Part shown: piece by piece, positions 15,026-52,483 of the stretch
How positions within the stretch are numbered: the first letter of the stretch is position 1
Layout of the letters: every line of letters starts with the position of its first letter
Assembly: GCA_038896535.1 (NCBI GenBank)
Contig: JAWACY010000002.1
Span: 128,001 to 192,000, forward strand
From: Candidatus Anstonellales archaeon
Lineage (GTDB): Archaea; Micrarchaeota; Micrarchaeia; Anstonellales; J096
Direction: 5' to 3'
DNA length: 64,000 bases
The notes under the pieces: model-generated
The model's database searches: none
Seen by the model: only the letters and a program-made list of their open reading frames with translations
What the model was told of the DNA's origin: nothing
Program-made: the position numbers and the translations under genes

Positions 15026-15042
15026 TTTATCAACCTTCTTAT

Positions 15043-17258: not shown

Positions 17259-17720
17259 TTATGCTCTTATAAGTGCTGCTGCCTCTTCTGGGTCATATTT
17301 CCATGTAGCACTTATCTCGCCTTTTTTCTTATAATATGAAGCAAGCCTGTTTATTTTGCTCAAAATATGGTTATATTTAACCCTATTTGCAATGTCCTTC
17401 TTATTCTTTTTCAAATGCTCCCATAACCTGACAGCTTTTCTAATTAAGTTAAGCATGTCCTCAGGCATTTTTGTATATATTTTTTCCTGCTTGAGAAATT
17501 GTTTCATGCTAACTCCTGTAAGCCCTTTGAATGAAGGCACACCATACTGGTCTCTTAAAATTACTCCTATATTTGCAGTACTATTGCCCTGCCTAAAAAG
17601 TTTTTTTACAATGTCCTTTGCCTCTTCTGCATTTAACTGCGCAAATGCTGGACTGCTTTTCTTCCTGCCAGCAAATTTACTTGAACTTTTTCCTTTTTTC
17701 TTTGAATGCAATCTTGCCAT
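17259..17720 (-). CDS. rps15: 30S ribosomal protein uS15
   Basis: MARLHSKKKGKSSS, IGVILRDQYGVP, PEDMLNLIRKA, SKINRLASYY. Confidence 0.96.
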   Translation of the reverse strand: MARLHSKKKGKSSSKFAGRKKSSPAFAQLNAEEAKDIVKKLFRQGNSTANIGVILRDQYGVPSFKGLTGVSMKQFLKQEKIYTKMPEDMLNLIRKAVRLWEHLKKNKKDIANRVKYNHILSKINRLASYYKKKGEISATWKYDPEEAAALIRA

Positions 17721-18035
17721 TTAATCACCCAATTCAATCATATTTTCTTTATACCCCATCTTTATGAGCAATTCTTTTGCCTTTTTTTTATGCTCACCTT
17801 GCAACATTATCTTATCATCTTTTAAAGACCCACCGCAAGCAAGTTTTGATTTCAACTGCTTGAAAATTTCTTTTATCTGGCTCTTTTCTATGCCTTCAAC
17901 AATTGTTATAAATTTCTTGAACTTTGCTTTTGCAGTATATATTTTTATTCTTTTAACCGCTCCTTCTCTTGTCAATGTATCACAAACGCAAAGTTCAAGT
18001 GGTAAATTACATGTAGGACATTTTTCTCCTATTAT
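17721..18035 (-). CDS. sui1: Translation initiation factor aIF1/SUI1, probable non-AUG (ATA) start
   Basis: LKSKLACGGS..IMLQGEH core; frame extends upstream of the called TTG to the Zn-knuckle CPTCNLPLELCVC; no in-frame ATG before the stop at 18051-18053. Confidence 0.92.
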   Translation of the reverse strand: MIGEKCPTCNLPLELCVCDTLTREGAVKRIKIYTAKAKFKKFITIVEGIEKSQIKEIFKQLKSKLACGGSLKDDKIMLQGEHKKKAKELLIKMGYKENMIELGD

Positions 18036-18038
18036 AAT

Positions 18039-18050
18039 ATCAACCTCCTC
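18039..18050 (-). promoter_or_regulatory. Shine-Dalgarno sequence GAGGAGGTTGAT of aIF1
   Basis: AGGTTGAT-att-ATA matches AGGTTGAT-aaa-ATG of the Lsm gene in sequence and spacing. Confidence 0.7.
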
Positions 18051-18068
18051 TTACTGCCATTATATATT

Positions 18069-18257
18069 TTAACTTGCATAACCTCCTTTTTCAAACTCTT
18101 TACCATGTATGAATGTTATTATTCTTGCTCGCATCCTTTTTAATTTCTTTATTTTCACTTCATCCTGGGCTGATAAAGCAAGCATCTCCTTCTCAATATT
18201 TTCAAGCTGCTTTTTCAGCTCATCAACAGGCATTGATTTCAATTCTTTTTTCTTCAT
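18069..18257 (-). CDS. rpl29: 50S ribosomal protein uL29
   Basis: ELKSM..DEL..L..KIKKLKRMRARIIT; position after uS3. Confidence 0.9.
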   Translation of the reverse strand: MKKKELKSMPVDELKKQLENIEKEMLALSAQDEVKIKKLKRMRARIITFIHGKEFEKGGYAS

Positions 18258-18265
18258 TCTACCAC

Positions 18266-18919
18266 CTAATTATTTTGCTCCTGCTGCTCTTGGCTTTGTT
18301 TTTCATTTTCTTGATCTGCATATATCTCTGGCTTAACAAGCCTTGCAATCTCCTTTCTGGCTATTCTTACTGTTATGCCAATAATACCAGATTTCGTCAA
18401 TGCTCCATACTTATAAACACCAACATATCTTGATACATCCCCCGCTTTTGGTACAAATCCAGCACTCACTTTTATACTTTTTGCCTTGCTTCCCTTTGCA
18501 CCAAGCTTTCCACCAGCAATTATTTCAACCCCCAAAGCTCCAGCGTTCATTACAGAACGCATAAGCTTATTAAGAACTGCCTTTACTTTTTCTCCTCTTT
18601 CTATTGCATTTGCTGCTCTTTTTGCAACAATCCTTGGCTCAAGCCATGGCTCTTTGACATCTATTACTGTTATATTAGGATTGTCTATGCCAAAATCATT
18701 TTTTATTTTTTCAACAATGCTCTGTATTTTCCTGCTTTTTTTATTCATCAATCTCTTTGGATCAAGCATCTCTATATATATTCTTGTCTCTACCGGGCTC
18801 TTTTGTATTATAACATTAGCAACAAGCACATTATCAAGCTCTTTTTCAAGAAATTCTGCAATCATGGATTTTTTTATTGCATCTGATATAAATTTATTTT
18901 TTATACTTGTCATAACCAT
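18266..18919 (-). CDS. rps3: 30S ribosomal protein uS3
   Basis: KH domain; VMNAGALGVEIIAGGKL; KSGIIGITVRI. Confidence 0.95.
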   Translation of the reverse strand: MVMTSIKNKFISDAIKKSMIAEFLEKELDNVLVANVIIQKSPVETRIYIEMLDPKRLMNKKSRKIQSIVEKIKNDFGIDNPNITVIDVKEPWLEPRIVAKRAANAIERGEKVKAVLNKLMRSVMNAGALGVEIIAGGKLGAKGSKAKSIKVSAGFVPKAGDVSRYVGVYKYGALTKSGIIGITVRIARKEIARLVKPEIYADQENEKQSQEQQEQNN

Positions 18920-18933
18920 ATTATCACCACATA

Positions 18934-19635
18934 CTATTTATCAATATCTTCATGCCCTTCGCCTTTTTCTTTTTCTCTGCTCTTTTTTTCTCTTGCTTTT
19001 CCTTTTTTGTCTTTGCTTTCTTTTTGTTTGCTTTCTTTTTGTTTTTCTTTTTCTTTGCTTTCTGCTTTTATACTTTCCTGACTTTGACTTGTTTCTCTTC
19101 CTTCTGTCTGCTTTGGCTCTTGCTTCTCCTTTAATTCCTGCTTCTTCTCCTTTAATTCCTGCTTCGGTTTTACTGGCTTTGCTCCTTTTTGCATTACAAC
19201 AATTTCAAGCCTTGCTAATTCATAAGACCTTGGCATCCTCCTTCCCTTTGGTTGCATTCTTCTATATGCCGCTTTTTTATTAGCGCATGCATGAGCAATA
19301 AAAAGCATTTCTTCATTTGCTCCTTTTCTAACTGCATTTGCAATAGCATCTTTTAATAAAGACAAAACATATTTTACTGCTTTTACTGGATATCTGCCTT
19401 TTCTGCCGTTCAATTCTTTTCTATGAGCAAGCTTTTTATTATGGGTTTTATAAAAAATAGGGGTTTTTCCTTCTTTCCCAAGAGAAGCTTTTTCAAGAAA
19501 AACAATGGCTTTTTGAACATTCATATTTCTTATATTATTACAAACTTGACAAAGATCCTTGAATGAAGCATTAATTGCCTCATTCCTTGCTTTTCCTACA
19601 ATATTATTTTCTTCATCAAATTTCATTGTATACAT
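18934..19635 (-). CDS. rpl22: 50S ribosomal protein uL22 with K/E/Q-rich C-terminal extension
   Basis: SFKDLCQVCNNIR, GRYPVKA, PKGR motifs. Confidence 0.93.
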   Translation of the reverse strand: MYTMKFDEENNIVGKARNEAINASFKDLCQVCNNIRNMNVQKAIVFLEKASLGKEGKTPIFYKTHNKKLAHRKELNGRKGRYPVKAVKYVLSLLKDAIANAVRKGANEEMLFIAHACANKKAAYRRMQPKGRRMPRSYELARLEIVVMQKGAKPVKPKQELKEKKQELKEKQEPKQTEGRETSQSQESIKAESKEKEKQKESKQKESKDKKGKAREKKSREKEKGEGHEDIDK

Positions 19636-26111: not shown

Positions 26112-26171
26112 AATATAATTATATGGGGGTAAAGTTTTTAAATATTATCGTTTTTGGCTGTTTTCAGATAT

Positions 26172-26323
26172 TGCCGCGGGTGGGATTCGAACCCACGACC
26201 TCCAGATAGCCCAAAGCCAAATTATAAATTTATAAATTAAATTCAAACATCATTGCATAAGCTCAGCACTCATAGATATATGCTTCCATGAGTCTGGCGT
26301 TCTACCAACTAAACTACCGCGGC
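26172..26323 (-). tRNA. tRNA-Met(CAT), elongator type, 79-nt intron at 37/38 (26208-26286)
   Basis: Acceptor GCCGCGG/CCGCGGC-A, anticodon stem CCAGA/TCTGG, T-loop GTTCGAATC; BHB formed by CTCA/TGGG helix, two 3-nt bulges and AAGC/GCTT intron stem. Confidence 0.93.
26208..26286 (-). ncRNA. Candidate intron-encoded box C'/D' methylation guide
   Basis: Guide TCTATGAGT (26276-26268), G, CTGA (26266-26263), GC-TTAT-GC hairpin, ATGATGT (26253-26247). Confidence 0.6.
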
Positions 26324-26374
26324 ATTATTTTTTATTAATGCAAATGATTTAAATAATTTTACACAAATCTAATC

Positions 26375-52395: not shown

Positions 52396-52483
52396 TGGGG
52401 CCACGAGGATTTGAACCCCGACTTACAGGTTTCTCTTATTTTTATCTGGAGCCTGCCGTGCTGCCAGATTACACCATGGCCCC
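52396..52483 (-). tRNA. tRNA-Trp(CCA) with 15-nt intron at 37/38 (52431-52445)
   Basis: GGGGCCA/TGGCCCC-A acceptor; GCAGG-CT-CCA-G|intron|A-CCTGT; GTTCAAATC. Confidence 0.9.

Follow-up and report, generated by a model that had tools for sequence, protein, structure and literature searches.

A putative near-cognate start codon in an archaeal aIF1 gene and its candidate role in autoregulation of start-codon stringency

Autoregulation of a factor that proofreads start-codon selection, through the poor start site of its own gene, is textbook knowledge in bacteria and eukaryotes. The bacterial infC gene, encoding IF3, reportedly starts at AUU and is under translational autocontrol, an observation said to go back to Butler et al. 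in 1987. In eukaryotes, eIF1 is translated from an AUG in poor context, which results in negative feedback (Ivanov et al. 2010, summarised in an extract of PMC6237735). The archaeal factor aIF1 has a fold unrelated to that of IF3, and with the S. solfataricus factor the 30S complex binds AUG and rejects AUU mRNA (both from extracts of PMC4705826). aIF1 was also described as blocking the full accommodation of the initiator tRNA and proofreading initiation complexes, and an overlong distance between the Shine-Dalgarno (SD) sequence and AUG reduced initiation in the P. abyssi system (extracts of PMC6237735). In addition, termination-reinitiation is described as a form of translational coupling in archaea (extract of PMC6728339). 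A full-text literature search covering sources outside subscription journals returned no statement on the start codon or autoregulation of archaeal aIF1, and the extracts of PMC6237735, PMC4705826, PMC7531240, PMC3828320 and PMC6412873 were silent on both subjects for the archaeal gene.

The aIF1 locus and its start region

The window analysed here is the whole stretch of 64,000 nucleotides, which belongs to a 752-kb Micrarchaeota metagenome-assembled genome (5 contigs, 32% GC). The translation of 17724-18050 matched Pfam SUI1 PF01253 over residues 33-101 (E 2.6e-16; score 60.2 bits, with the cut-off at 25.5) and was the single match in the genome. The gene was embedded in a ribosomal-protein cluster on the minus strand, in the order uL22 (18934-19635), uS3 (18266-18919), uL29, aIF1 and uS15, and thus lay between uL29 and uS15 (Table 1). 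The uL29 assignment was also backed by its position and by a C-terminal ..GG.. motif as in relatives. At the uS15 junction, in contrast to aIF1 in the same operon, a normal SD-ATG arrangement was found, with the ATG 1 nt past the aIF1 stop and GGTGAT at -9. Read-through from uL29 into aIF1 was ruled out by the three in-frame TAA codons between the two genes. The predicted knuckle-bearing aIF1 peptide was CPTCNLPLELCVCDTLTR. A Zn knuckle of the CxxC...CxC type is common, though not universal, among archaeal aIF1 proteins.

Table 1. Features of the aIF1 locus, with positions in the window
Feature	Position	Strand	Detail or basis
aIF1/SUI1 coding sequence	17721..18035	-	AUA 18035 to TAA 17723-17721, 104 codons; putative start +/-1 codon
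Tandem in-frame near-cognate codons (three), candidate starts	18030..18038	-	ATT 18038-18036, ATA 18035-18033, ATA 18032-18030
Shine-Dalgarno region GAGGAGGTTGAT	18039..18050	-	Core GGAGGT 18048-18043; sequence
In-frame stop TAA at the upstream end of the open frame	18051..18053	-	Translation *NI*WQ*EEVD (asterisk, stop)
Two further in-frame TAA	18062-18060 and 18071-18069	-	Translation
Zn-knuckle codons CPTC-x6-CVC	17982..18020	-	Four Cys intact, in frame
uL29, upstream neighbour, frame shared with aIF1	18069..18257	-	Pfam Ribosomal_L29, E 4.9e-4, under curated cut-off
uS15 (S13/S15), downstream neighbour	17259..17720	-	Pfam matches
First canonical in-frame start, TTG	17973..17975	-	Downstream of knuckle; TGTGAT at modal SD position
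Out-of-frame mini-ORF ATG TCC TAC ATG TAA (MSYM*)	18007..18021	-	Arises from AAA TGT
Six-codon mini-ORF ATG GCA GTA AGA GGA GGT TGA (MAVRGG*)	18040..18060	-	Overlaps SD; TGA 18042-18040
AT-rich insert GTTAAAATATATAAT, confined to this genome	18059..18073	-	TATA-like; resembles genome TATA box

The reading frame at the 5' end of the gene was TAA GAG GAG GTT GAT ATT ATA ATA GGA GAA AAA TGT CCT ACA TGT, and the second half of the knuckle was encoded by TGC GTT TGT. The first-pass annotation had stated that no in-frame ATG, GTG or TTG precedes the intact Zn knuckle, and this was borne out, the first such codon being the TTG at 17975. A standard ORF list therefore yielded only an 84-aa piece of aIF1 starting from this TTG and lacking the knuckle. 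The absence of ATG, GTG and TTG over ten AT-rich codons is not improbable by itself, and the weight of the non-AUG call comes from the conserved coding N-terminus together with the comparative pattern. The knuckle cysteines C1, C4, C11 and C13 were invariant in 30 relatives. An out-of-frame ATG just inside the coding sequence, also annotated in the first pass, was present at 18021. Its product MSYM was dropped as a functional element because it was not conserved, and ATT, ATC or GTA followed by TGY were as frequent as ATA TGY in the relatives.

The sequence itself was compared with Logan contigs over 17600-18400 in four runs; these are contigs, in which rare variants would be lost, and not raw reads. 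No differences and no indels were found over 18030-18060 in the contigs of runs X1, X5 and X6, whose cover was 17600-18215 for X5 and 17680-18107 for X6, while X1 (depth 17.5) is possibly the source run and the contig of X2 ended at 18036. The runs containing the stretch were hot-spring metagenomes from two studies, X1, X5 and X6 being three samples, and no RNA run was among those listed for it. An assembly error or single-base indel was rejected, since the sequence was identical in the contigs of two further samples. The single-A insertion proposed earlier, which would restore ATG GCA GTA GAG GAG, was accordingly left unsupported by contigs that agree at 18030-18060.

Three tandem AUN codons are available to start the knuckle-bearing frame. 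SD distance (d) was counted from the first G of GGAGGTGA to the start, with a genome-wide mode of 12-13 nt, and was 10 for ATT 18038, 13 for ATA 18035 and 16 for ATA 18032. SD sequences were found as exact matches to the consensus GGAGGTGATC and not to the anti-SD of this genome, as the 16S 3' end was sought in the genome assembly and not found; the words enriched upstream of starts in this genome (AGGTGG, GGTGAT and GAGGTG) agreed with this consensus. The window contained 7 copies of the word AGGTTGAT, where 1.7 would be expected. The Sm/Lsm-like gene carries AGGTTGAT plus 3 nt plus ATG at 15029-15036, and the claimed parity of spacing held, with AGGTTGAT plus 3 nt plus ATA at 18035. Four genes have GGTTGA at -10 relative to their ATG, which also pointed to ATA 18035. 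On the other hand, ATA GGA GAA AAA TGT aligned with ATG GGA GAR ATH TGY (MGEIC) of other Micrarchaeota and pointed to 18032. The evidence on the exact start is thus split between 18035 (SD spacing), 18032 (homology) and 18038 (TATA-like element). Most likely, aIF1 starts at a near-cognate AUN codon, with AUA 18035 favoured and AUU 18038 and AUA 18032 as possible co-starts, and the tandem AUN codons may all contribute to initiation. The non-AUG start of the first-pass annotation is well supported. That annotation was silent on starts at AUU 18038 and AUA 18032, on initiation at TTG 17975 and on a TATA-like promoter in the insert.

The initiator tRNA of this genome had a CAU anticodon, A1..U72 and the GGG/CCC stem, and an intron-bearing tRNA-Ile(UAU), which decodes AUA as isoleucine in elongation, was present. 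Reassignment of AUA to methionine was rejected on account of this tRNA-Ile(UAU) and the normal CAU initiator tRNA. No RNA structure hiding the SD or the start was found, the fold of 17995-18100 having an energy of -13.2 kcal/mol (z = -0.06).

SD-led ORFs of the genome were collected as a tight set (SD-supported start at most 12 codons from the upstream stop), which replaced a broader scan swamped by intragenic SD-like words. Starts in this set were ATG in 86, TTG in 6 and GTG in 4. Eight tight ORFs had a near-cognate start only, and aIF1 was the only one of them to have both a 6-mer SD and a recognisable protein product, the other seven being low-complexity or wrong-frame by eye. The genes for aIF1A, aIF2-beta and aIF2-alpha all started with ATG. 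No other SD-led gene of the genome was convincingly devoid of a canonical start, which supports the non-AUG reading of aIF1.

About 30 extra bases separated uL29 and aIF1, and contained the three in-frame stops, the six-codon mini-ORF overlapping the SD that had been noticed in the first pass, and the TATA-like run. This insert was absent from all 39 relatives, as was the mini-ORF; in these relatives the upstream stop lay 3-6 nt before the aIF1 start. The end of the mini-ORF, AGA GGA GGT TGA, which stops 1 nt ahead of ATT 18038, mimicked the ...GG-x-stop end of uL29 that bears the aIF1 SD in the relatives. Possible explanations of the mini-ORF are a duplication of the junction and a relay function in termination-reinitiation.

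Start codons and SD spacing of aIF1 in relatives and other phyla

aIF1 was found in 40 of 41 genomes of the order, and its start, read individually at every junction and in agreement with the automatic labels, was TTG in 29, ATG in 7, GTG in 2, CTG in 1 and ATA in 1 (this genome), kin among these relatives not being independent counts. In one genome counted as TTG (G021) an ATG was also located next to the first Cys, while the TTG sat at SD distance. A conserved non-AUG start at the uL29-aIF1 junction, for which alignment of related genomes had been proposed, was hence recovered in 33 of 40 aIF1 genes, and the contrary case, that close relatives all use ATG, was false, with TTG in all three same-genus genomes. 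At the same loci the aligned starts were ATG in 35 of 35 for uS3, 34 of 34 for uL22, 6 of 6 for uS15 and 6 of 6 for the next ORF. Other SD-supported ORFs of these loci had ATG in 338, TTG in 24 and GTG in 21 according to an automatic caller that serves as a rough background, as it recognised 16 of 39 aIF1 ORFs (no SD 6, TTG 5, ATG 3, GTG 2). The poor start was therefore conserved among relatives and specific to aIF1, since uS3 and uL22 of these loci and the other initiation factors of this genome had ATG. Part of the aIF1 SD lies in the last uL29 codons, so that its position is also constrained by uL29.

The best 80 matches to the aIF1 profile in the genome collection mostly had ATG, one ATG row among them, on which none of the claims rests, coming from a genome flagged as unpublished (L088). 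Junctions with only CTG or only ATA were also present among these best 80, in Hadarchaeota and Aenigmatarchaeota records. Three groups, including these two, were sampled after non-AUG starts had been sighted there. Of 66 Hadarchaeota genomes, 65 had aIF1, with CTG in 33-34, ATG in 24, GTG in 4-5, ATA in 2 and one cut by a contig end. The CTG form read GGAGGTG-N5-stop-N3-CTG CCA GAR GTN TGY, with 30 at d = 15, and its CTG corresponded by homology to the ATG with which MPE(I/V)C forms begin. In the two ATA cases the sisters carried a stop-overlapping ATG, ATGA becoming ATAA. Among the tight-ORF CTG calls at the Hadarchaeota loci, 22 of 25 were aIF1 and the other three looked non-genic. For the Aenigmatarchaeota order, 41 genomes were searched and 37 of them gave a match; the 30 loci that were read had ATG in 19, GTG in 3, ambiguous in 2 and ATA at SD distance in 6. 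An ATA at SD distance marked one subclade. Five of the six ATA cases had d = 13-14 and the other had ATA as the only option; in four a TTG or GTG was placed too near the SD, at d about 8, and in two no canonical codon was available. At least 22 changes between ATG and non-ATG were required on a FastTree of 191 proteins, which is a weak tree of about 100 residues.

A total of 196 unique aIF1 junctions were pooled (ATG 103, CTG 35, TTG 29, GTG 12, ATA 9, unclear 8), and their SD spacing is given in Table 2 together with that of other genes, which are ORFs and not curated models. The CTG, TTG and ATA starts counted there under d = 11-16 lay at d = 13-16. Two phylum samples of 30 loci each were also drawn evenly and without regard to non-AUG cases. 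In the phylum of this genome the starts were ATG in 22, TTG in 7 and GTG in 1, with d of at least 17 in 18 of 18 ATG junctions with SD and d = 13-14 in 7 of 7 TTG junctions. In the phylum of the genome carrying locus L097, ATG was found in 29 and GTG in 1, with d of at least 17 in 18 of 19 ATG junctions with SD. The pooled counts and both phylum samples showed that a weak codon occurs at normal spacing, and that AUG is placed 4-5 nt too far from the SD. Judged from these junctions, the archaeal aIF1 start site appears to be handicapped nearly everywhere sampled, by either a near-cognate codon or a mis-spaced AUG.

Table 2. SD spacing of aIF1 junctions and of other genes (ORFs, not curated models)
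Start or gene class	With SD	d = 11-16	d of at least 17
aIF1 CTG	32	32	0
aIF1 TTG	23	20	3
aIF1 ATA	8	7	1
aIF1 ATG	76	8	65 (modes 17 and 18)
Other genes, SD of at least 5-mer	746	612	60
Other genes, SD of at least 6-mer	330	291	12

Candidate feedback and alternative explanations

The arrangement suggests a mechanism in which the strong SD GGAGGU would position AUA 18035 at the usual distance and the standard CAU initiator tRNA would pair with AUA with a mismatch at the third position. As aIF1 would destabilise initiation complexes formed at codons other than AUG, higher levels of aIF1 are predicted to decrease initiation on the aIF1 mRNA and lower levels to increase it, and the resulting negative feedback would keep start-codon stringency constant. 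More generally, a start at AUA, CUG or UUG, or a mis-spaced AUG, would put the aIF1 mRNA among the messages most sensitive to aIF1, from which negative feedback would follow. UUG and GUG count as regular start codons in archaea, and the published result is for AUU and the S. solfataricus factor, as distinct from UUG, CUG or AUA and the present organism. For this genome, the near-cognate AUN start of its sole aIF1 gene probably, with somewhat better than even confidence, sets up a negative feedback through aIF1 proofreading. For Archaea as a whole, a selected handicap of the aIF1 site leading to self-repression and a stringency set point is proposed tentatively, at slightly below an even chance. 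The fidelity autoregulation of the first-pass annotation thus fits the wider pattern and the published biochemistry, and its feedback component we infer from them.

The alternative that survives best, although it is considered unlikely, is a fixed attenuation without feedback, in which the weak start merely lowers aIF1, a factor needed in smaller amounts, relative to the co-transcribed ribosomal proteins. aIF1 does sit within a highly expressed ribosomal-protein operon (uL29-aIF1-uS15), and the trade-off between codon strength and spacing resembles selection for one intermediate strength, for which feedback is not required; such down-tuning accounts for the same sequence data. Against this, the other genes of the operon are without such tuning, and the handicap is of the type of site reportedly policed by aIF1 (extracts of PMC4705826 and PMC6237735), so that some dependence on the aIF1 level would be hard to avoid. 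Because the handicap is of the type that aIF1 inspects and is specific to aIF1, feedback was ranked above down-tuning, as about three times as likely.

An own promoter in the insert, giving a leaderless or nearly leaderless mRNA from 18046-18037, is improbable. AUU 18038 or AUA 18035 would then be initiated leaderless and the SD would be used only by read-through transcripts. No SD was found in 634 of 768 ORFs of this genome, which show a genome-wide TATA signal, TTWWAAA at -28..-21 from ATG, and the AT-rich insert is missing from all 39 relatives. For starts at 18046-18037, which include ATT 18038, GTTAAAATATATAAT scored at the 92nd-98th percentile of random sites with the position weight matrix, but this matrix separates poorly at 32% GC, with a median of 1.58 for true genes against a random 95th percentile of 2.29. 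A bacterial-type scan found no terminator and 12 promoter-like sites, where 7.5 were expected, but bacterial models of this kind are not informative about an archaeon. If the mRNA were leaderless, it would be a strange coincidence to find a strong SD at the modal distance. Leaderless initiation relies even more on a cognate AUG, and only ATT and ATA are present here at the 5' end.

Initiation at TTG 17975 is very improbable; the product would be an 84-aa aIF1 without knuckle, and the upstream knuckle codons a recently orphaned remnant. Its attractions are that TGTGAT precedes this TTG exactly where GGTGAT precedes 11 ATG genes, and that knuckle-less aIF1 occurs naturally in 5 of the 40 genomes of the order. 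However, the conserved Cys-Asp codons dictate the TGTGAT, and the natural knuckle-less forms, which still start with TTG or GTG, retain about 20 residues ahead of the RIKIY strand, compared to 8 in the product from TTG 17975. In addition, the four Cys and the frame are intact despite 62-64% protein identity to the nearest relatives, and the strong SD and AUN codons are at the expected place.

Recoding or error, with the mini-ORF from ATG 18060 joined by an RF2-like +1 shift at GGT TGA or an indel hiding a MAVEEVD... frame, is scarcely credible, since, despite an SD-like GGAGG directly before the stop as in prfB and a mini-ORF ending 1 nt before the AUN codons, the contigs of three runs and three samples agree base for base, GGU re-pairs poorly on GUU for an RF2-type frameshift, the mini-ORF lacks its own SD and is missing in all relatives, and the non-AUG pattern of other lineages requires no frameshift.

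Implications and comparison with known systems

The favoured reading remains a near-cognate AUN start combined with feedback through aIF1 proofreading; use of an AUN codon is what we infer from the spacing and the comparative pattern, and feedback rather than fixed low output would be its consequence. If the handicap and self-repression proposed for Archaea as a whole are real, the same feedback logic would operate in all three domains, through IF3, eIF1 and aIF1, and CUG and AUA would be genuine, functionally chosen archaeal start codons. The comparative data would supply cases from nature in which archaeal genes start at CUG or AUA, and the pattern makes archaeal aIF1 feedback directly testable with existing archaeal systems. 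Gene callers restricted to ATG, GTG and TTG truncate or misplace the aIF1 N-terminus in many archaeal genomes. The SD spacing of 17-18 nt compared to 12-14 nt is usable as a measure of poor context.

Compared to ordinary archaeal aIF1 genes of the S10/spc cluster, the present gene shares the family, the Zn knuckle, the location next to uL29 on its downstream side and an SD that lies within the closing part of the preceding gene, but differs by about 30 extra bases and by having no ATG, GTG or TTG at all. It also resembles termination-reinitiation, as the upstream stop of relatives lies 0-6 nt ahead of the start or overlaps it (ATGA), and here the stop of the mini-ORF is followed after 1 nt by ATT 18038. 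Coupling alone, however, would leave the weak codons and long spacing confined to aIF1 unexplained, the other coupled genes of the operon being normal. With eIF1 the likeness is closer: aIF1 is its homologue, and the archaeal AUG forms, with an SD distance of 17-18 against 12-14, are analogous to a poor Kozak context. Here the context would be SD spacing and not Kozak nucleotides, and many archaeal lineages drop AUG entirely. The infC gene for IF3 is similar in that the gene of the proofreader itself carries an AUN near-cognate start behind a good SD, and more factor is predicted to give less self-translation. Unlike infC, the aIF1 start varies by lineage (UUG, CUG, AUA, GUG) and appears replaceable by a mis-spaced AUG.

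Probable leaderless mRNAs, a possible SD variant and tRNAs

Across the whole genome of the window (G000), an SD-supported start was absent from 634 of 768 long ORFs, and the genes without an SD showed a clear TATA signal (TTWWAAA) at -28 to -21 relative to the ATG. Together, these two results indicated that the majority of G000 mRNAs are probably leaderless. The 3' end of the 16S rRNA was looked for in the G000 assembly and was not found. In the window, AGGTTGAT occurred in seven copies compared to 1.7 expected, a count that was reached in none of 100 shuffles. At least two of the copies were located at ribosome-binding sites, which suggests that AGGTTGAT is an SD variant with one T more than GGTGAT.

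The default tRNA scan of the window produced tRNA-Val only, and the detection of tRNA-Met(CAU) and tRNA-Trp(CCA) required ARAGORN with introns permitted. Just two CAU tRNAs were found in G000, a genome that is 91% complete. An intron-containing tRNA-Ile with anticodon UAU was also identified outside the window, and AUA decoding in G000 would therefore not need an agmatidine-modified CAU tRNA.

Candidate CTG starts outside aIF1

In the Micrarchaeota relatives G030 and G020, the ORF beginning LNIIVGID(V/A)GTTTG... had a CTG with GGTGAT at an SD distance (first G of the SD to the start codon) of 12, and the nearest downstream ATG, GTG or TTG was 72 or 128 codons away. From its sequence, this ORF is a candidate for a further CTG start besides that of aIF1. 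The ORF with N-terminus LRLISEGAEARIYETEFLGIDAIVKER, which looks like a Bud32-type kinase when judged by eye, had its CTG behind a 7-mer SD at a distance of 12 and its nearest canonical start 60 codons 3' of the CTG. For a uL29-like ORF, GGAGGTGG preceded the candidate CTG start at a distance of 14.

Coordinates of the features and loci compared (L, loci extracted from other genomes; C2, a G000 contig)
Feature	Location	Strand	Remark
LNIIVGID(V/A)GTTTG... ORF	L126, 796 of reverse complement	minus	SD-led CTG
LNIIVGID(V/A)GTTTG... ORF	L130, 10303	plus	SD-led CTG
LRLISEGAEARIYETEFLGIDAIVKER ORF	L079, 7324	plus	7-mer SD before CTG
uL29-like ORF LKAKEIRAMSEEEMKEKLRELRAEL	L151, 1269 of reverse complement	minus	GGAGGTGG before CTG
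AGGTTGAT sites	window 15029, 16573, 18039, 21416, 26916, 29046, 57071		
tRNA-Met(CAU), intron	window 26171-26324	minus	ARAGORN, introns allowed
tRNA-Trp(CCA), intron	window 52396-52483	minus	ARAGORN, introns allowed
tRNA-Ile(UAU), intron	C2 208746-208846		ARAGORN
Knuckle-less aIF1	L142, L145, L146, L147, L148		genomes G009, G023, G017, G016, G014
Hadarchaeota overlap	L156, L163, L152, L162 vs L213, L177		

aIF1 in related archaea

The N-terminal Zn knuckle was gone from aIF1 of five same-order relatives, and an IPGFD motif was in its place in three of these proteins. In four of the Hadarchaeota loci compared, the aIF1 start overlapped the stop of the upstream gene at a GCATGA junction. A single base change in two Hadarchaeota genomes converted TGA to TAA and simultaneously ATG to ATA, which would weaken the aIF1 start while being silent for the upstream gene.
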